Source: Minisyncoccota bacterium (GTDB taxonomy: Bacteria > Patescibacteriota > Minisyncoccia > Phycocordibacterales > Phycocordibacteraceae). Taken from it: a stretch of 54,342 nt of DNA. Below, one piece after another: positions 16,256 to 31,330 of this stretch (position 1 is its first letter; each line of letters opens with the position of its first letter). The notes under the pieces are model-generated. The model saw only the letters and a program-made list of their open reading frames with translations. It searched no databases and was not told where the DNA came from. The stretch is taken from positions 1 through 54,342 of the forward strand of contig JBAYUT010000001.1 of assembly GCA_041674945.1 (NCBI GenBank), given 5' to 3'. Both the position numbers and the translations under genes were made by a program.

Positions 16256-16326
16256 GGGCCTATGGCGTAGTGGTAACGTGCGTCCATGGCATGGACGAGT
16301 CGGGAGTTCGACTCTCCCTAGGTCCA
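16256..16326 (+). tRNA. tRNA-Ala(GGC)
   Basis: Acceptor GGGCCTA/TAGGTCC with G3:U70. Anticodon stem CGTCC/GGACG with loop ATGGCAT. T-arm GGGAGTTCGACTCTCCC. Confidence 0.88.
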
Positions 16327-17560
16327 CATTCACAGAGCCAGTGTGCTCTATTTCCTCACAAACCCTTTTAAGGACTGTGTATTTTGGTGTTCGATAGCCC
16401 TCAATTTTGCTATACACCAAATTAGTCTCAAAAGGAACGAGAAGAACTTTTGTTGCTCAAACACATTCAATTCTGACCAAGTATCATAAGGTTCTTTTAG
16501 TACACCCAACACTTTGTTGAGGGCTGTTCGATAAGGAACGGCGTAGTCATATTTTGGTGCACTATCGGCTTCGGTAGTGATTTTGAAGCATCGGAAACAT
16601 TTATTTGTGCGTGGTAAAGATGTGTTTTCATATTGTTATTTCTGGTATTTTGTCTCTTGGTATGATGCGAACTTTCACTTTTTTCATCCCTAGGATTGAT
16701 GCTTTCATCAAGCGATGCAATCCATCGAGAATAAGCCACCGTCCTTTATTTTCCATAATATCAATCGGATGTACGAGGTCTGCTTTCATTGTTCTTTCGT
16801 ACTCGCTGATATGCCTCTCTTTATCATCAATTACATCCTGTGGAGTGAGATTATAAATACCGCCACCTTCCCATAAAAAGGGAATATCGAAGTGCCATAT
16901 AAGTTCAGTAATATCCATCTCTGTAACAGGAATATCAAGTTGCCACACTTTCTTTTCATCCCAACTAAAATCAAAGCCGACTTCTTTTATGGTTTTTGGG
17001 ATTTCCTTTTTTATTACCACTTGCCACTCATCTTCATAAACAACATTGCCTATTTTTTGAGGGTCAATTTCCTCACATTCAAAATTAGAAAGGTATTTCT
17101 GATGCACTTTGAAAAGTGTCCGCTCATATTGATTTTTGCCTTTTTCTGTAAGAAAAAATCTATAATCTCCTTCTGGTAACTGAGGTTTCGGCATCCATTT
17201 TCTTGCTTCGAGAGCTTCATCTCCTAACGATTCGGGAAGCAATCTTTTACCCGCAGAAAATACACCTTCTTTGTTTGATGTATAGCGATATAACTTCTTG
17301 TGCTCCATAAATGAAATTATAACAAAAAATTGGCAAAAACGCCTTTGTTGCGACCTCAACATCAGATACTCATCTAATACTCTTGTTGTGGTAGTTCTGT
17401 TTACGTTGCGACTTGTTTTTGCAGTATGTTTTGCCTATTTCCCAAGCCATTCAAAAATGCATACCACTCAAAAACAAAGTCTTGTATGGTGTTCGATGTT
17501 TTTCGGTCAATGTCCACAAACTTGCGCTCCCACCAAGGGGCACGTACAATGCGCTTACTA
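16327..17560. mobile_element. AT-rich island immediately 3' of tRNA-Ala(GGC)
   Basis: The sequence changes abruptly to AT-rich composition right after the tRNA and returns to flank composition before greA. The 11-bp direct repeat TGGTGTTCGAT occurs at 16385-16395 and 17487-17497. Confidence 0.4.
16628..17308 (-). CDS. ParB/Srx-fold (ParB-like nuclease domain) protein
   Basis: 226 aa from the ATG at 17308. C-terminal RWLILDGLHRLMKA is a DGxHR ParB/sulfiredoxin motif. TGTTATAAT lies 7 nt upstream of the ATG and there is no SD. Confidence 0.7.
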   Translation of the reverse strand: MEHKKLYRYTSNKEGVFSAGKRLLPESLGDEALEARKWMPKPQLPEGDYRFFLTEKGKNQYERTLFKVHQKYLSNFECEEIDPQKIGNVVYEDEWQVVIKKEIPKTIKEVGFDFSWDEKKVWQLDIPVTEMDITELIWHFDIPFLWEGGGIYNLTPQDVIDDKERHISEYERTMKADLVHPIDIMENKGRWLILDGLHRLMKASILGMKKVKVRIIPRDKIPEITI

Positions 17561-17577
17561 CGTTCTAAAAATTAAAC

Positions 17578-18051
17578 ATGACTGATGCACAAACCGCCGT
17601 TGTTTCGCAGGAGAAGTTTGACGAGATGGTTAAAGAGCTCGAACACTTGAAGACCGTACGCCGTACCGAGATCGCCAAGAACCTTGAGTACGCACGTGCG
17701 CTCGGCGACCTCTCCGAGAATGCTGAGTACCAAGAGGCGCGCGACCTGCAGGCAGCCACCGAGGAGCGCATCAAGAAGCTTGAGGACATGGTGAAGAACA
17801 CCAAGATTATCACCGATGGCAAGAAGAAAGACGAGGTAAGCTTCAATTCAAAAGTATCGATCAAGAAAGAAGGGAACTCTGAAGTACACGAATACACTAT
17901 CGTGGGCAGCGAGGAGGCTGACATGCGCGTGAAGAAGCTCTCGCACGTCTCACCACTTGGCGCGGCACTCATGGGCAAGAAAAAGGGGGACACCTTCACC
18001 TTTGAGACTCCGGGCGGCAAGCAGACCTACACCATAGAGAAGGTGGCCTAA
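17578..18051 (+). CDS. greA: transcription elongation factor GreA
   Basis: 157 aa. ARALGDLSENAEYQEAR coiled-coil tip and a C-terminal FKBP-like domain. Confidence 0.95.
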   Translation: MTDAQTAVVSQEKFDEMVKELEHLKTVRRTEIAKNLEYARALGDLSENAEYQEARDLQAATEERIKKLEDMVKNTKIITDGKKKDEVSFNSKVSIKKEGNSEVHEYTIVGSEEADMRVKKLSHVSPLGAALMGKKKGDTFTFETPGGKQTYTIEKVA

Positions 18052-26029: not shown

Positions 26030-26156
26030 ATACGTCGGCCCTTTTCTTTTGTGTTTGGTAGGGGACTGAAGGCGAGGCTCTTGGGCCTTAGGATGTTTTA
26101 TGGCGACGTTTCATTTCTCGAACGGAGTCTTTAAAACTAGCAACAAGAACTAAGAA

Positions 26157-26183
26157 AGCCTCGTACCGCAATGGTACGAGGCT
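26157..26183 (-). terminator. intrinsic terminator of the 26227-26832 gene
   Basis: 11-bp stem AGCCTCGTACC/GGTACGAGGCT. On the minus strand it is followed by TTCTTAGTTCTTGTT. Confidence 0.7.
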
Positions 26184-26226
26184 CCCGAGACGAAATCGGG
26201 CTGAGTCTATGCACCCGCGTAGCGCC

Positions 26227-26832
26227 CTACCACTTCGGCTCGGCATTCAATCCCTCCACCGGGCGGTATTCGGTCTCGTCGTTGAGAACGACGAAGGCCC
26301 AGGGGCCGAGCTTCAGGAGCTCCTGGTCAGGGGCCAGTCCATCTCTGACGAACTGGTCGTATAGGAGTCTCGTATCGTCCGTGATGCGCCTCCAGCGAGG
26401 TTCTTCATCCTTGCGAATATTTCCCCGGTACGCTTTCGCCCAGTCCGCCTCCTTTTTGAGACGCGCCATGGTCAGCGTGGGGCAGCCGAAGTTGCTCGTG
26501 TAGACGATGACCCTCTTGCCGATGAACCGTACCTCTCGGCCGCTCGTCTGACTGTCGTGAGACCACGTGCGCCGATCGTCCTGGATGAACTCGATGTCGA
26601 CAAGTCGGTACGCGAGCATGATCAGATCATCGCAATTCCACCCCTGGAAGTGCCGAATGACCTGCTCCTGACTCGGATTCTGTTCGACGTCCTCGGAGAG
26701 CAGCAGGTCGTGATAATAGCTTTCGGTATCCACCAGAAACCCCGGGGCCATCTGCGTGGAGTAACACGTCCAGACCCTGATGAAGCGCTGGCGGTAGCGC
26801 ACCGCCGGAATAAGTATCTCTTCAGATTTCAT
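26227..26832 (-). CDS. hypothetical protein (island gene A, 201 aa)
   Basis: AGGAGG SD 7 nt before the ATG at 26832. Promoter TTGACG (26913-26908) -N17- TATGAT (26890-26885). Has its own terminator. Confidence 0.7.
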   Translation of the reverse strand: MKSEEILIPAVRYRQRFIRVWTCYSTQMAPGFLVDTESYYHDLLLSEDVEQNPSQEQVIRHFQGWNCDDLIMLAYRLVDIEFIQDDRRTWSHDSQTSGREVRFIGKRVIVYTSNFGCPTLTMARLKKEADWAKAYRGNIRKDEEPRWRRITDDTRLLYDQFVRDGLAPDQELLKLGPWAFVVLNDETEYRPVEGLNAEPKW

Positions 26833-26940
26833 TTGCGGATCTCCTCCTGCAAATTGTGAAAGGAGAGGGATTGCTCTATCTGTAATCATACAATTTATCA
26901 AAGCTCCCGTCAACACTCGCGCGTCTCTCAGCGCGGCATT

Positions 26941-27114
26941 CCACGCTTGCTTAGGCTCACAAATGCAAAAGCCGCCTTTCGGCGGTTTGCATTTGTGACC
27001 CAATTAGTCGTAATTGAAGCCACTTATCAGAGAGCTTAATAGCTGGTTTGTATCTGGTCGCTCCCTCGAACAGGAACGCTCCTCCGTGTAGGCCTACTGC
27101 CTTTCGGGATTAGA
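26941..27114. repeat. island repeat family, copy 1
   Basis: Contains the 42-nt hairpin 26957-26998, the conserved short frame 27014-27091 (+), and ends ACTGCCTTTCGGGATTAGA. Homologous to 28411-28576. Confidence 0.85.
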
Positions 27115-27125
27115 GCTGAAAGAGG

Positions 27126-28244
27126 CTACACGTTGCCATCGACTTGACCTCGCACGAACAGATCGAATTGAACCATGTTGTACCAGTAGCCGTATGGATC
27201 TTTCCAGAAGACTACAGGGTGTGCGGCGAGAAACTCGGCATATGATGGCGCATCGGACTTTGTCATGTCGACAAGACTATACAGACACTGGTGTACGGCA
27301 CTATTCTTCTGTGAGTCAATTTCGTATACCGTAGAGTCTTTATGAGTTGTGCCGGTCTGCACAAATAACACCTCCAAAGCATGCATAGTCTTGAAGTCTT
27401 TATAGCACTGCTCTTTGGCATATAGAGCCCCGCCGTCGTATTGAGCAATGGCGGAAGACCCATCCTTCCACGCAATACCAGGGACTTCCATATGCAGTAC
27501 TTTCTCTGAAAAATCAGTTACAAGATTTGCGCCATACCAAATGCCTATCGGTGTCTGAATGACATAGGTGGGGCGCGATCCCATATATCCATATTCAACA
27601 AAGTGCTCCTCAATATCATCAGCATCGTAGTCCGGTGTGTCCGCGTCTGGACGTGCCAGGGTGCTTCCCGACACAGTAGTGGTCGGCGTAACGGGAGTGA
27701 CCTTTCCCCAATCGCTCGCATACAGATCGGTTGCCCATACTTGGAAGCGGTGACCGTTTGAATCGGTTACGTATCTCGCCTCGCTTTGTGTTCCAGGGAG
27801 GTAAAGTTGCGTCGGAAAAGTATCCGCGGGAGCCAGGGGGAGGTTTAGGAGTCCCAGGGCTTCAATGTCGCCCTTGGGTCCGCGACGCCATCCCAAGTCG
27901 CCCCACCACGCAATGGGATTCCCTCCCGCGTCACCAATAAAGTATCCGTACGTTATGCGATTCGTGCCTCGTGCGTAATAGAGGTGAGATCCGGCGTATG
28001 GGCCGGAGTGAAATGTGGCAACATCGTGGACCGCCATAATCGGTGCGGGACCATACGAAGGAGCAAAGGGCGACTTCACTGTTTTGAAAGGTTTTGAAGC
28101 ATCGATGACTCGCCACTCAATCTGTCCTGTAGAAGAGGTCTGCGGCTCTTGCGTAGTACCATTGTGCGTGCAGTAAGCTAACCCGCCCGCCACAATGAGT
28201 ACGAGTACAACAATACAGCTGTGCATCATTCTGCTGCGATTCAT
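27126..28244 (-). CDS. hypothetical membrane-anchored/secreted protein (island gene B)
   Basis: N-terminal hydrophobic anchor SCIVVLVLIVAGGLAY. TTGACA (28281-28276) -N16- TATAGA (28259-28254) lies 9 nt upstream of the ATG at 28244. The start could also be 28262. Confidence 0.7.
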   Translation of the reverse strand: MNRSRMMHSCIVVLVLIVAGGLAYCTHNGTTQEPQTSSTGQIEWRVIDASKPFKTVKSPFAPSYGPAPIMAVHDVATFHSGPYAGSHLYYARGTNRITYGYFIGDAGGNPIAWWGDLGWRRGPKGDIEALGLLNLPLAPADTFPTQLYLPGTQSEARYVTDSNGHRFQVWATDLYASDWGKVTPVTPTTTVSGSTLARPDADTPDYDADDIEEHFVEYGYMGSRPTYVIQTPIGIWYGANLVTDFSEKVLHMEVPGIAWKDGSSAIAQYDGGALYAKEQCYKDFKTMHALEVLFVQTGTTHKDSTVYEIDSQKNSAVHQCLYSLVDMTKSDAPSYAEFLAAHPVVFWKDPYGYWYNMVQFDLFVRGQVDGNV

Positions 28245-28283
28245 GTACACGTATCTATACATTACAGCCGGTATATGTCAATT

Positions 28284-28300
28284 TTGTGACCCTACCGGGA
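28284..28300. repeat. direct repeat of the tRNA-Glu 3' end (att-like)
   Basis: TTGTGACCCTACCGGGA is identical to 31256-31272, which is the last 14 nt of tRNA-Glu plus 3 flanking nt. Followed by the imperfect palindrome GGATCGCGATTACGCGTATCGATCC. Confidence 0.6.
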
Positions 28301-28410
28301 TCGCGATTACGCGTATCGATCCTTACAGGATCAGTACACCTTGTGGAGATTTTGCTTCAGGAAATCGCATAATCTGCTCACAAGGTTTTCGATTCCCGGG
28401 CGCAAAGCGT

Positions 28411-28576
28411 CCCACGCTTTGCTTAGGGTCACAAATGCAAAAGCCGCCTTTCGGCGGTTTGCATTTGTGACCCCAGTTAGTCGTAATTGGAACCAGCTTA
28501 TCATAGAGCTTAACAGCTGGCTTGTGTTCGGAAGGGATCTAGAAGGCGTCCGCAATACTGCCTTTAGGGATTAGAA
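28411..28576. repeat. island repeat family, copy 2
   Basis: Hairpin 28429-28470 is identical in stem to copy 1. Conserved frame ends at 28574. Ends ACTGCCTTTAGGGATTAGA. Confidence 0.85.
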
Positions 28577-28601
28577 ACGGCAGAGCATGTAAGAAACAGA
28601 A

Positions 28602-28629
28602 GAGGCCCGCAGCTTGCGCTACGGGCCTC
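28602..28629 (-). terminator. intrinsic terminator of island gene C
   Basis: GAGGCCCG...CGGGCCTC stem. On the minus strand it is followed by TTCTGTTTCTT. Confidence 0.7.
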
Positions 28630-28633
28630 GACC

Positions 28634-29044
28634 TCAGCAATACTTGAACCAGGCGATCGTCGCGACGACCCAGCTCAGACAGTTCGCGATCTCACTGATA
28701 GCCGACCCGCGCCTGTTGCGCTCGTTCGCGGCCTCTCTCACTGTGAAGGCGAGTTGGAGGAGGCGGAGACTGATGGTCAGGTGACCCATCAGTACCATCT
28801 CCCACGTCAGCTTCCCTTGGTGCATCACGTACATGTTGTAGGCCAACATGAGTTGTGGTAATGCCTTGAAGAAGATCGCCAGGACACCCTTCACGATCGG
28901 GTCTTTGTACGACAAGCCGCGAAGCCGGGCCGCACCAAGCGTCAGTACGATACCGACTGACGCAAGAACCGTCGTGAGCGTATCCCGCTCGTTCCACTGA
29001 CCCGTCCCTTTCCAGAACATCACGGCGAGGAAAGACGTCACCAT
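28634..29044 (-). CDS. hypothetical multi-pass membrane protein (island gene C), weak PQ-loop-like motif
   Basis: 136 aa with about 4 hydrophobic helices and ALPQLMLAYNMY. Its start overlaps the gene D stop (ATGGTGA). Confidence 0.6.
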   Translation of the reverse strand: MVTSFLAVMFWKGTGQWNERDTLTTVLASVGIVLTLGAARLRGLSYKDPIVKGVLAIFFKALPQLMLAYNMYVMHQGKLTWEMVLMGHLTISLRLLQLAFTVREAANERNRRGSAISEIANCLSWVVATIAWFKYC

Positions 29045-29286
29045 CCAAAAGACAGTCGGTAGCTCCAGATCGTTTGCCGCATGACACGGCTAGGCTGGAT
29101 CCGATCCGCCTGTTTAACGAGACGTAGGTTGATTGCCAAGAAGATGAGCCAGAACACAAGCCAGCTGACGCTGACTCCTGCTGCTGACGTCGTCATCTGG
29201 ACGAGTTGGCCGTGGGTGGACCACGCCACGAGAAAGAATTGACTCCCGAAAAGGAAGTCTGCGAGTCGTTGCTTTCGATTCGACAT
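29038..29286 (-). CDS. hypothetical small membrane protein (island gene D), weak PQ-loop/SemiSWEET-like motif
   Basis: AAGGAGG SD before the ATG at 29286. Promoter TTGACA (29385-29380) -N17- TATGAT (29362-29357). GQLVQMTTSAAGVSVSWLVFW resembles a PQ-loop. Confidence 0.6.
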   Translation of the reverse strand: MSNRKQRLADFLFGSQFFLVAWSTHGQLVQMTTSAAGVSVSWLVFWLIFLAINLRLVKQADRIQPSRVMRQTIWSYRLSFGW

Positions 29287-29383
29287 CACGCCCTCCTTTA
29301 GGGTCGGTTGAGATCTTGTTGAGGTAAAAGAGCAGAGCCACCTATGGCTCTAAGCCATCATAGCATGTTCTGGCCCGCGTGTC

Positions 29384-29510
29384 AAGTCGTTATGCTAAAA
29401 TGAGACAAAATCGGAACCAACTTATCCTGGAGCTTAATCGCCAGCTCGACTTTGGGCGCTCGCTAGAACAAGAGAGAACAGGGTCGTAATACTGCCTTTA
29501 GGGATTAGAA
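29384..29510. repeat. island repeat family, copy 3 (no hairpin)
   Basis: Shares GTCGT.A...GGAACCA.CTTATC..GAGCTTAA...ACTGCCTTTAGGGATTAGA with copies 1 and 2. Contains the 29-codon ORF 29400-29489 (+). Confidence 0.8.
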
Positions 29511-29656
29511 CTAACCGAAAGCGCATCTTTTGTAAGCCTTGACAGAACGTATGTTCTGTGTAGTATACACAACGGAAGGGGAATTCTCCCAAAACCTGGG
29601 GGATGTCCCCAAAACTGACGGATTGACAACTGAAACGCGCAAGGAGGTTCGAGGAA

Positions 29657-31078
29657 ATGACCGACATCACCAACGGAACCGCAGACGGAGTGGAAGAAGA
29701 ACCCCGGGGCGATGCCCTGCACAAAAACGAGACCAGCGACGATGGCCAGACGGCCGAGACCGCCGACCTCAAAGACGAAACCGAGGACGATGAGGAAGAA
29801 AAAGAAGAGCCTCTCGACCCCGACGACGTCGAGGGAGAAGGACTCATCAAAATCCTCCTCCCGCACATCGGCCTGCAGGAACCCAACCTGCCGGTGCAGT
29901 GGTGCGTCGCGCCCAAGCTGATTGCGGCCCTCAAGCGGCGATGGCTGGCAGACGACGCACATGTGCTCTTCTGCATCACGGATGAAAACGGGTGGGAAGT
30001 TCCTGGCATGCGCCAGATCGTCCCCCTCATGCAGGTGCAGACGTGGATCCCGTTCCGCAAACCCGGTGCCTTCACCATCCACGCTCGTGTCGTCTCCGGC
30101 GACTACGACAGGTCGCTCATGAAGTACCTGGTACGTGACAACGGTTCTGCGAGTGCTCGATACGACACCGACATTCTGCATGCCGACCGCATTCCGCGGA
30201 TCATGGATGAACAAGGCGTCGACGAGGCTGAGGCCCGCCGGCGACTGAGCATCCACAAGGGTACTGTCAGTGGGTTCGGACTCTCGAAGAAGGAGATCAT
30301 GATCGATGAGAAGCTCTTCGCTCCTCCTCCTTCGCCATGGCTCGCATGGTGGATCATGTTCCCCAACAGCGACGAGTTCCGGCCCGACGACGAGTGCCAC
30401 TTCCGCAAGCAGGTGCTCTGGGCGATCCCCAAGATCGCCTACATCGGCCCGTGGGCACTGAGCATCGTGCTCTGGCGAGCGCTTCTCGCGTTCGGCTGGC
30501 GCATCCTGCTCCTCGGCTCGTTGCAGGCGTGGAAACCTCTGCTCCATCCGTTCGCGATGCGAACGGCGAGCATGTTCCTGCCGGAAAAGGAGGCCCTCCC
30601 CACGATCGCTCGTGGATGGCTTCTCAGATTGCAGGAGAAGGAAGGGGACGAAGGACAGCACTACGATGAGCTCGACGTGGGCTGGTGGACGCCGATCGGC
30701 ATCCTCCAGATGCCGCTAACGTGGCTCGTGCTGCTGGTGCTGGGGACAATTCCCGGTCTGTTCATGGAGTACGGCTTCACCTTCTGGAACCTGCTCATCG
30801 CAGGTCTCGGTACGGTGGTGGCAATCGCCAGCATCATCGCGGCGGGAGTCGGACTGTTCATGGGCAAGGAGAAGCTCGAGGAGAGGTATCCCAACGCGGG
30901 CTACCACTTCAGCAAGTGGCTCCGAAGCTATTTCGGCCGAGAGAAGGATGAGTTCGCCGATATCGTCTGCGAAGACGGTAAGGCGGCGTTCAAGCCCTTC
31001 TCTGCGGTGCCGAAGAACCGCCAGCTCATCTTCAACGCGATCAAGCACGAAGTCTGCAAGATCTACGCTCGCTCGTAA
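29657..31078 (+). CDS. hypothetical membrane protein with an acidic N-terminus (island gene E)
   Basis: AAGGAGG SD. Promoter TTGACA at 29539-29544 with a TG-extended -10 near 29561-29567. Several C-terminal TM helices and a long terminator hairpin downstream. Confidence 0.75.
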   Translation: MTDITNGTADGVEEEPRGDALHKNETSDDGQTAETADLKDETEDDEEEKEEPLDPDDVEGEGLIKILLPHIGLQEPNLPVQWCVAPKLIAALKRRWLADDAHVLFCITDENGWEVPGMRQIVPLMQVQTWIPFRKPGAFTIHARVVSGDYDRSLMKYLVRDNGSASARYDTDILHADRIPRIMDEQGVDEAEARRRLSIHKGTVSGFGLSKKEIMIDEKLFAPPPSPWLAWWIMFPNSDEFRPDDECHFRKQVLWAIPKIAYIGPWALSIVLWRALLAFGWRILLLGSLQAWKPLLHPFAMRTASMFLPEKEALPTIARGWLLRLQEKEGDEGQHYDELDVGWWTPIGILQMPLTWLVLLVLGTIPGLFMEYGFTFWNLLIAGLGTVVAIASIIAAGVGLFMGKEKLEERYPNAGYHFSKWLRSYFGREKDEFADIVCEDGKAAFKPFSAVPKNRQLIFNAIKHEVCKIYARS

Positions 31079-31125
31079 CGGGAGCGTACGCCAACCGGCT
31101 TGTGCGAAGGCCGTCAGGTTCGTTC

Positions 31126-31173
31126 AACACTCATTCGTATACTCGACCTCCAGTCGAGATACGGGTGAGTGTT
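31126..31173 (+). terminator. intrinsic terminator of island gene E
   Basis: Long hairpin AACACTCA...TCGAC-CTCCA-GTCGA...TGAGTGTT followed by TTTTAATTT. Confidence 0.7.
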
Positions 31174-31258
31174 TTAATTTATGCTGACGCAAAGTATTGG
31201 TTCGATCGTCCCGTTTGGATACTCCGCACGAGCCCGTAAAATAAGCACAAAATAGTTG

Positions 31259-31330
31259 TGACCCTACCGGGAATCGAACCCGGATTTAAAGCTTGAGAAG
31301 CTTCCGTCCTAACCGTTAGACGATAGGGCC
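31259..31330 (-). tRNA. tRNA-Glu(CUC)
   Basis: Reverse complement is GGCCCTATCGTCTAACGGTTAGGACGGAAGCTTCTCAAGCTTTAAATCCGGGTTCGATTCCCGGTAGGGTCA. Anticodon loop TTCTCAA. Canonical T-arm. Confidence 0.85.

Follow-up and report, generated by a model that had tools for sequence, protein, structure and literature searches.

Repeats downstream of tRNA-Glu in a Candidatus Paceibacterota contig as probable attachment-site junctions of large serine recombinase elements

The contig analysed in this study (54,342 nt, referred to as the window) belongs to a metagenome-assembled genome (MAG) of Candidatus Paceibacterota, within the candidate phyla radiation (CPR), and carries three copies of a repeat downstream of its tRNA-Glu(CUC) gene, all on the + strand (26941-27114, 28411-28576 and approximately 29400-29510) and with orphan genes between them. 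Based on the findings presented here, these repeats are most probably attR-type junctions, composed of a chromosomal arm and a P' arm, that were left by elements of approximately 4-6 kb encoding a large serine recombinase (LSR) and inserting at the 3' end of tRNA-Glu. The short conserved reading frame within the repeats would accordingly represent the last ~30 codons of the elements' own LSR gene, cut off by integration.

A first-pass annotation of the window had placed three same-strand copies at these positions, and this was upheld: the 19-nt end motif of the repeat, ACTGCCTTTMGGGATTAGA, occurs three times in the 54-kb window while shuffled sequences predict 0.01 occurrences, and CTTATCNNNGAGCTTAA is found three times without a mismatch. 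The statement that the copies diverge completely after the end motif also holds, all similarity among the three being lost past ...GGGATTAGA, and the three peptides were recovered as quoted, with GRSLEQER in copies 1 and 3 encoded by codons that differ in six of eight cases, every difference being synonymous.

The repeat is part of a wider family. A profile of the three peptides was searched against 1.84 billion representative proteins (exhaustive HMMER) and returned 33 matches, 31 of them genuine, while a second search with the family alignment yielded 42 members, one of which derives from a Parcubacteria MAG; none of the 42 carries a Pfam domain, and their names reveal nothing beyond 'hypothetical protein'. 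Nearly all family proteins are 29-116 aa long and match at their C-terminus, with the consensus (V/M)TQVGQNWNQL(I/V)xELNxW(L/Y)xFGRxLE followed by a variable tail. Contig look-ups and one metagenome scan provided approximately 40 loci, in which a six-frame search with the family hidden Markov model (HMM) gave 61 matches corresponding to approximately 50 distinct copies. Copies within a locus are always on the same strand, and several loci possess arrays of two to three copies, like the window. Almost every one of the ~50 copies has a start codon (GTG, ATG or TTG) at the same column, several copies have a terminator hairpin of their own downstream, and a motif of approximately 20 nt, ACTnCC-N3-4-GGGATTAGAA, follows about half of the copies, usually 18-30 nt past the stop codon. 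Two of the loci (L018, positions 246-563, and L025, approximately 113-459) harbour an opposite-strand gene for a 98-aa membrane protein between the coding segment and this motif, the reverse complement of which stands directly upstream of the ATG of the membrane gene (TTCTAATCCCTAAGGGCAGTT-ATG); the 20-nt motif is therefore separable from the coding part.

A word-indexed protein search with the three window peptides returned nothing, the family peptide has no match in Pfam, NCBIfam or PHROGs, and a PDB sequence search with the family profile was equally negative. Viral contigs contained neither the exact 19-mer nor the peptide pattern. The exact 19-mer was found twice in 185,579 species genomes, in both cases with no upstream similarity, and these matches were dismissed as chance.

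Considered alone, the three window copies provide a modest coding signal that is suggestive rather than compelling. Pairwise differences at codon positions 1/2/3 amount to 5/7/11, 6/5/10 and 7/6/12, third-position differences being only about twice as frequent as those at the first or second position; the ratio of nonsynonymous to synonymous substitution (dN/dS, Nei-Gojobori method, NG86) is approximately 0.20 in the conserved frame against 0.22-0.40 in the antisense frame, which is open and shares the wobble position; and the observed amino-acid identity was reached in 0.02-0.08% of locally constrained column shuffles. The wider family is decisive in this respect. In a gap-free alignment of 43 unique copies over 25 codons, the entropy at codon positions 1/2/3 is 0.54/0.29/0.93 for codons 1-11 and 1.0/0.73/1.59 for codons 12-25, Leu codons alternate between the CTN and TTR families, and the ratio of nonsynonymous to synonymous polymorphism (pN/pS) is 0.36 in frame, compared to 0.96-1.76 in four of the remaining frames; the antisense frame with the shared wobble position gives 0.44. 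Searches for a conserved RNA fold were negative: RNAalifold found three pairs at -0.05 kcal/mol across the 43 copies, individual copies fold no better than their shuffles (z-scores of -0.4 to +1.8), and no Rfam match falls on any copy. This agrees with the earlier remark that compensatory base changes are lacking. Since the substitutions are three-periodic and no RNA fold is conserved, the sequence has been shaped by selection on the protein, and the frame is genuine coding sequence under purifying selection, as the first-pass annotation had proposed. Purifying selection on amino acids is, however, equally expected for the tail of an integrase and for a stand-alone small protein.

The genomic context of the family points to the former. 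At approximately 19 loci, and likewise in the window, a tRNA-Glu gene lies 0.4-4.7 kb downstream of the copy, on the opposite strand and with its 3' end towards the copy; its place is taken by tRNA-Lys in L026 and L034 and by tRNA-Val in L050, and in L040, L041, L049 and L023 the tRNA and the copy are separated by 0.37-0.53 kb, the copy still being present. In the relatives, the copy is located 2.3–5.9 kb upstream of an LSR of approximately 508 aa encoded on the same strand. A recombinase with the Resolvase, Recombinase and zinc-ribbon domains occurs in the relatives only: the window is devoid of an LSR, and tblastn detected no LSR homologue in it at E <= 0.01. The 508-aa LSR genes of L022 (8690-10216) and L024 (8734-10260) are each the last gene before the tRNA, on the strand of the copy, and match Resolvase (PF00239, E values of 9e-32 and 3e-30, respectively), Recombinase (PF07508) and Zn_ribbon_recom (PF13408). 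Both of these genes finish in 12 codons that are antisense to the 3' end of tRNA-Glu (...SQL-VTLPGFEPGFQA). A full-length LSR homologue in L026 ends in the antisense of tRNA-Lys, a near-full homologue is present in L016, the 5' parts of LSR genes run off the contig ends in L015, L031 and L033, and L028 retains a truncated relic. An initial idea that the peptide is the tail of a tyrosine recombinase (..IYTHV..) was dropped, the linked gene encoding a serine recombinase.

Both junctions of an element are available at four loci, and in each case they have a short core in common: GGTGACC in L022, GTGACC in L024, TGACCC in L028 and GGTGC in L026, the latter at tRNA-Lys. The copy of L026 starts with VL rather than VT. 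In the window, TTGTGACCC is common to copies 1 and 2 and to the tRNA junction. The GTG of the core is an in-frame Val codon in all five LSR genes whose end is visible, and fusing the 3' end of the LSR gene with the copy at this core therefore produces a single uninterrupted open reading frame (ORF), the reconstructed attP-form C-termini reading straight through. The fused form is also seen directly in two independent relic ORFs, P0032 (L052, 8001-8348) and P0023, which read ...PGFKTAELAPIY...NHY-VTQVGQNWNQL..., and the C-terminal region of the LSR matches the upstream part of these relics with E values of 3e-7 and 9e-5. The suggestion made in the first-pass annotation that the frame may be the C-terminal relic of a longer gene is thus substantiated, the longer gene being an LSR gene whose 3' end crosses its own attP. 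A PDB search with the rebuilt long LSR returned catalytic-domain structures only, which are uninformative with regard to the tail.

Dyad symmetry in the rebuilt attP sites was assessed for these four reconstructions, without formal control for multiple testing. The best dyad centre is located at the core in L022 (14/24) and L026 (12/24), compared to approximately 6/24 for random sequence, while in L028 the core dyad (11/24) ranks third and in L024 none of the best three lies at the core. In the rebuilt attP of L022 and L026 the P arm, AATGGTGCCAAT..CCCAATTGG, mirrors the P' arm, CCAAGTGGG..AATTGGAACCA, and because of this mirroring NWNQL, the most invariant stretch of the peptide, is also a predicted recombinase-binding motif. 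The inner motif of P', corresponding to codons 3-6, occurs in two sub-types, CAAGTGGGACAG (encoding QVGQ) and CACGTTAGTGAG or CAAATTAGTC (encoding HVSE or QISR), the window possessing the second; these may mark integrase sub-families with different site specificity.

Taken together, these data are consistent with an arrangement that places attP within the 3' end of the element's own LSR gene. On the excised circle this gene would read ...(K/Q)L-VT-QVGQNWNQLxxELNxWLxFGRxLE...stop, and recombination with the tRNA gene would take place within the shared G(G)TGACC, a core complementary to the acceptor end of the tRNA. Upon integration the LSR body would come to adjoin the tRNA, its ~30-aa C-terminus being swapped for a short tail encoded by tRNA antisense (12 aa on tRNA-Glu copies, e.g. 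VTLPGFEPGFQA), as is seen where an LSR end can be read on a tRNA. The last 25-50 codons, together with the conserved 20-nt post-stop motif, would be carried to the far end of the element (attR), where the detached 3' piece would abut whatever had followed the tRNA; in the lineage of the window this is presumably the tRNA's own terminator hairpin. The conservation of the peptide may have two components, as codons 1-11 would double as the predicted LSR-binding P' half-site, while codons 12-27, outside attP, would be conserved as protein, namely the C-terminal tail of the integrase. The apparent start codon would be accidental, its last two bases TG complementing C72 and A73 of the tRNA, so that a start codon results from all but one of the four possible first bases. 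Excision of the element would regenerate the long integrase, and the tail may matter for activity or for the direction of recombination.

In the window, three modules would be arranged head to tail downstream of tRNA-Glu(CUC) (31258-31330, - strand), the proposed integration target, whose 3' end (GTGACCC on the + strand, 31258-31264) is the core common to copies 1 and 2. Since all three modules lack an LSR, the window copies are best regarded as relics and not as three maintained genes: copy 2 is intact, copy 1 frameshifted and copy 3 truncated. The chromosomal arm (B side) of copy 1 (26941-26994, + strand) comprises 16 nt of shared flank and a palindromic hairpin (26957-26998), and that of copy 2 (28411-28466, + strand) likewise consists of shared flank and hairpin (arms 28426-28441 and 28458-28473). 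The hairpin is confined to these two copies, its 5' 20-mer being found exactly twice, and has arms of 16 nt with 100%/94% complementarity; the 55 nt at 26947-27001, which run into the core, are 98% identical between copies 1 and 2. The hairpin had been interpreted as a terminator in either direction, of which only the - strand half stands, the scan calling a terminator on that strand (26985-26972) and none on the + strand. On the - strand the arm of copy 1 reads as an intrinsic terminator that immediately follows a tRNA 3'-end-like GGCTCAC, and an identical 25-nt stretch, TTTCGGCGGTTTGCATTTGTGACCC, precedes the core in copy 1 and in the syntenic relative L053. Because of this shared stretch and the - strand terminator call, the hairpin is taken to be the chromosomal arm, that is, the tRNA's own terminator. 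In an independent assembly of the same strain (L005, Logan SRR6484325) the contig breaks inside the hairpin of copy 1, as a repeat would cause.

The coding parts of the three copies differ in their state of preservation. In copy 1, the core GTGACCC (26995-27001) and the putative detached 3' coding segment of the serine-integrase gene extend over 26995-27091 on the + strand (nhmmer, E 6e-20). A 1-nt deletion near 27022 (GAAGCCA-CTT instead of GGAACCAGCTT) frameshifts this segment, and the conserved frame, which picks up at 27014-27091, is thereby disconnected from the family start position at 26995, the frame that begins at the core GTG ending at a stop codon at 27037-27039; the copy accordingly matches the protein HMM at positions 12-34 only (40.8 bits). 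Its DNA motif ACTGCCTTTCGGGATTAGAG (27096-27115, + strand) lies beyond the stop codon (27089-27091), and homology ends there. Copy 2 (28467-28574, + strand) is an intact family member that aligns with the 42 other copies, with a core GTGACCC (28467-28473), 35 codons, VTPVSRNWNQLIIELNSWLVFGRDLEGVRNTAFRD, followed by TAG, and a score of 71.7 bits against the family HMM; its codons 1-11 coincide with the predicted P' half-site of attP, and its end motif ACTGCCTTTAGGGATTAGAA (28557-28576, + strand) overlaps the last codons and the stop codon owing to a 10-nt deletion. Copy 3 is a 5'-truncated, decayed tail, MRQNRNQLILELNRQLDFGRSLEQERTGS (29400-29489, + strand; HMM positions 6-34, 51.4 bits), devoid of both the core GTGACC and the hairpin, in which two family-invariant Trp residues are replaced (W->R and W->Q); its motif ACTGCCTTTAGGGATTAGAA (29491-29510, + strand) begins 2 nt past the stop codon. 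The earlier claim that purifying selection acts in every module could therefore not be sustained, given the frameshift of copy 1 and the lost core and Trp residues of copy 3. A 10-13 nt indel sets copies 1 and 3 apart from copy 2, and since the end motif is located past the stop codon in both, it is conserved as DNA and not as codons. Attempts to explain this motif as a hairpin were abandoned, as only its 5' side varies and the stem amounts to 3-4 bp with mismatches.

The right end of module 1 is marked by a displaced fragment of the tRNA-Glu 3' end, TTGTGACCCTACCGGGA (28284-28300, + strand), an exact 17-nt match to 31256-31272. This direct repeat exceeds the 6-9 nt core of serine-integrase junctions and points to either an element of a second type or a decayed duplicate of the tRNA gene. 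A similar tRNA fragment is present in L043 at 8873 (15/16 nt).

Several observations weigh against the proposal that the repeats derive from LSR elements. No intact long-tailed LSR, as an excised or circular element would encode, was recovered, the fused form being represented by two truncated relics inside arrays, and no protein of at least 500 aa with this tail was found among the cluster representatives. Approximately 30 of the 40 loci show no LSR, yet many of their copies keep an open frame, which could indicate an independent function, in a set of loci that was retrieved with a peptide pattern and is biased towards intact copies. Tandem arrays would require attP x attL or attP x attR recombination, reactions that canonical serine integrases do not perform. 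The hairpin arm that copies 1 and 2 both carry is not predicted by simple serial integration, which would have to be supplemented by a duplication of the target region; with its 17 nt, the tRNA fragment at 28284 exceeds the core of 6-9 nt expected of a serine integrase; and the proposal assigns no role to the conserved 20-nt post-stop motif. The chromosomal arm in both copies, together with the 17-nt fragment, suggests that the target region was duplicated; the route by which tandem arrays arise is one that we infer rather than observe.

The open frames in loci without an LSR bear on the possibility that the family encodes a free-standing micro-protein of approximately 30-45 aa, translated from the core GTG/ATG and acting as a small regulator or as a recombination directionality factor (RDF), a reading that we consider unlikely and that would also be compatible with an integrase tail. 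The start codon in the same column of nearly all copies, the terminator hairpins that follow several of them and the pN/pS of 0.36 are all in keeping with such a protein. The TG of the start codon is, however, fixed by the acceptor end and discriminator base of the tRNA, and three of the four first bases yield a start codon by default; no Shine-Dalgarno-like sequence is discernible by eye upstream, the terminator hairpin includes the start codon in the window, and the promoter scan found none that would drive copy 3, which is flanked by two divergent promoters, each directed away from it. Approximately half of the secondary array copies, which were not selected by peptide, are degenerate (copies 1 and 3 of the window, L009_7477, L046_4192 and both copies of L012), and no match to a family, structure or defence library hints at a function. 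A CTTGAA...AATACT promoter inside the repeat was rejected because its spacing ranges from 9 to 21 nt across copies, and a reading as the leader of a ribosomally synthesised and post-translationally modified peptide (RiPP) was set aside with no matching enzymes or sequence features identified. The live micro-ORF envisaged in the first-pass annotation is thus not favoured, its start being set by the tRNA acceptor end and overlapped by a terminator hairpin, and the segment forming, in relatives, the 3' part of a longer gene.

A structured non-coding RNA or cis-regulatory leader common to the orphan genes is very improbable. The copies are indeed intergenic and adjoin promoters, and the 20-nt motif past the stop codon is strongly conserved despite being non-coding, but the RNAalifold, shuffling and Rfam results described above and the three-periodicity of the substitutions argue against it, as do the neighbouring genes, which vary in identity and orientation between loci. 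Least probable of all are integron-like attC sites, the template and variable repeats of a diversity-generating retroelement (DGR) and decayed copies of tRNA-Glu, notwithstanding the resemblance of same-strand repeats separating orphan genes to a cassette array and the 7-9 nt at the start of the repeat that are identical to the tRNA 3' end: no integron integrase of the tyrosine type was identified, although the window ORFs were not systematically searched for one, and the recombinase linked to the family is of the serine type; neither R''/R' core pairs (GTTRRRY/RYYYAAC) nor a foldable bottom strand were seen by eye, and the repeat as a whole folds into no stable hairpin; the differences among copies show no adenine specificity, and a reverse transcriptase was likewise not identified; and outside the core the alignment of repeat and tRNA equals that of shuffles (mean z of 0.67 in the same and 0.03 in the opposite orientation), with no tRNA-model match on the copies even at E <= 10.

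The genes that lie between the window copies provide little information on function, none of them having a match in Pfam, NCBIfam or PHROGs. Module 1, which extends from copy 1 to the 17-nt tRNA fragment, encodes an orphan protein of 378 aa (27126-28262, - strand) with a hydrophobic, signal-peptide-like N-terminus (by eye), for which the sole homologue found (50% identity) occurs in an unrelated context. In module 2, copy 2 is accompanied by a membrane-protein gene (28634-29289, - strand) that is split by an apparent frameshift into ORFs of 83 and 136 aa with a 7-nt overlap and possesses its own terminator (28629-28602) and promoter (29385-29357). This gene may be a frameshifted pseudogene or subject to programmed frameshifting, and an independent assembly (L001/L004) shows the identical split. 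An Rfam match to BjrC68 at 28594-28646 scored below the gathering threshold and was discarded as merely the terminator hairpin. Module 3 consists of copy 3, a gene for a 473-aa orphan protein (29657-31078, + strand) and the tRNA-Glu gene; the protein, which is not a recombinase, has hydrophobic stretches in its C-terminal half (by eye), and its gene would be driven from a promoter-like site at 29539-29566.

A comparison with the syntenic loci L008 and L053 shows that the segment between the repeat and tRNA-Glu (window 26100-31330) has an inverted orientation with respect to its YqeY/RmuC and MurF/dcw flanks, and the tRNA faces MurF in L008 and L053 and YqeY in the window. Elsewhere in the window, positions 16256-18050, just downstream of tRNA-Ala(GGC), have a GC content of 0.44-0.45 compared to 0.53-0.61 in other parts, and this stretch is probably a second tRNA-linked island. 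A tRNA gene at positions 1-60 (Rfam RF00005, 43 bits) is incomplete, being truncated where the contig begins.

The cargo of intact elements in the relatives consists mostly of orphan secreted or membrane proteins, in addition to PIN and DndB/HEPN genes, with no recognisable capsid or replication genes. A recurrent cargo protein with a signal peptide followed by A(A/S)WWNPxSW is encoded in L022 (7290-8177, - strand), L026 (978-1967, + strand) and L031 (2075-2860, + strand) and looks like a secreted family, while the cargo of L033 (996-5462, - strand) includes a 692-aa protein with DndB-domain and HEPN regions and a 792-aa HEAT-repeat protein, which may constitute a defence module.

Parallels to the proposed arrangement exist in several known systems. 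Mycobacteriophages with integration-dependent immunity employ a tyrosine integrase as their recombinase. Their attP core is situated within the repressor ORF, which loses its 3' end upon integration, and the prophage produces a shorter protein with a host-derived end (PMC9934374). The 3' remnant stays at attR, and tandem prophages create remnant/gene junctions at which the reading frame matters (PMC9934374). The LSR elements described here similarly have the attP core within coding sequence and a 3' remnant at attR. The split gene of the mycobacteriophages is, however, a repressor gene with an ssrA-like degradation tag at its 3' end, whereas here it is the LSR gene itself, with a conserved, helix-like tail of approximately 30 aa and a CPR host. 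SSV integrases are archaeal tyrosine recombinases that have a tRNA gene as integration target and are cut near their 5' part into Int(N) and Int(C), with no complete enzyme remaining. In these SSV-type (fusellovirus) systems of Sulfolobus the att site is inside the integrase gene, which is interrupted by integration, a feature that has been called unique to the family (PMC5861418). The location of the att site within the integrase gene is shared with the LSR elements, but the bacterial serine recombinase would lose its last ~30 residues only and keep all three catalytic and DNA-binding domains when integrated.

With phiC31, Bxb1 and A118/LI the LSRs of this family share the set of Resolvase, Recombinase and Zn_ribbon_recom domains. 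Canonical large serine integrases employ a short shared core, as the elements described here would, and an attP of approximately 50 bp whose dyad symmetry is imperfect; in the model systems this site is outside the int ORF, the targets are protein-coding genes and not tRNA 3' ends, and a separate RDF protein sets the direction of recombination. The elements described here differ in that attP is inside int and the target is a tRNA 3' end, with no RDF identified in them. Islander-type islands are stated to involve tyrosine integrases and to restore the tRNA 3' end through a long identity block (PMC4383910). The window resembles such islands in its position downstream of a tRNA 3' end, in the displaced tRNA fragment that forms a direct repeat (17 nt, 28284-28300) and in the tandem accretion at one tRNA, while the main repeats here would be pieces of an integrase gene and not tRNA fragments. 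In the literature, no description of this arrangement was found for serine integrases or in CPR bacteria.

Based on these findings, what appeared to be a conserved micro-ORF between orphan genes can be explained as a by-product of site-specific recombination, which serves as a warning against calling small proteins on dN/dS alone. The 26-codon tail profile and the 20-nt motif are ready markers with which these islands may be delimited in metagenome bins. Genome engineering makes wide use of serine integrases, the directionality of which normally depends on a second protein, and the loci described here offer natural attP/attB pairs as well as a candidate self-regulating integrase architecture, with attP placed within int and an exchange of the C-terminal tail. 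It may be suggested, tentatively and with considerable doubt, that the C-terminal swap is a built-in directionality or commitment switch, whereby the tailed, integration-competent enzyme would be made only from the circle and the tail-less integrated form would differ in activity, stability or excision, within widespread 4-6 kb elements that shuttle orphan surface proteins among CPR bacteria; if true, the direction of recombination would be controlled without a separate RDF protein. The repeats of the window thus point to an unannotated family of minimal serine-integrase elements at tRNA-Glu or tRNA-Lys in Paceibacterota, for which no earlier description was found in this group, and these elements mark a hypervariable hotspot that is conserved across many genomes.

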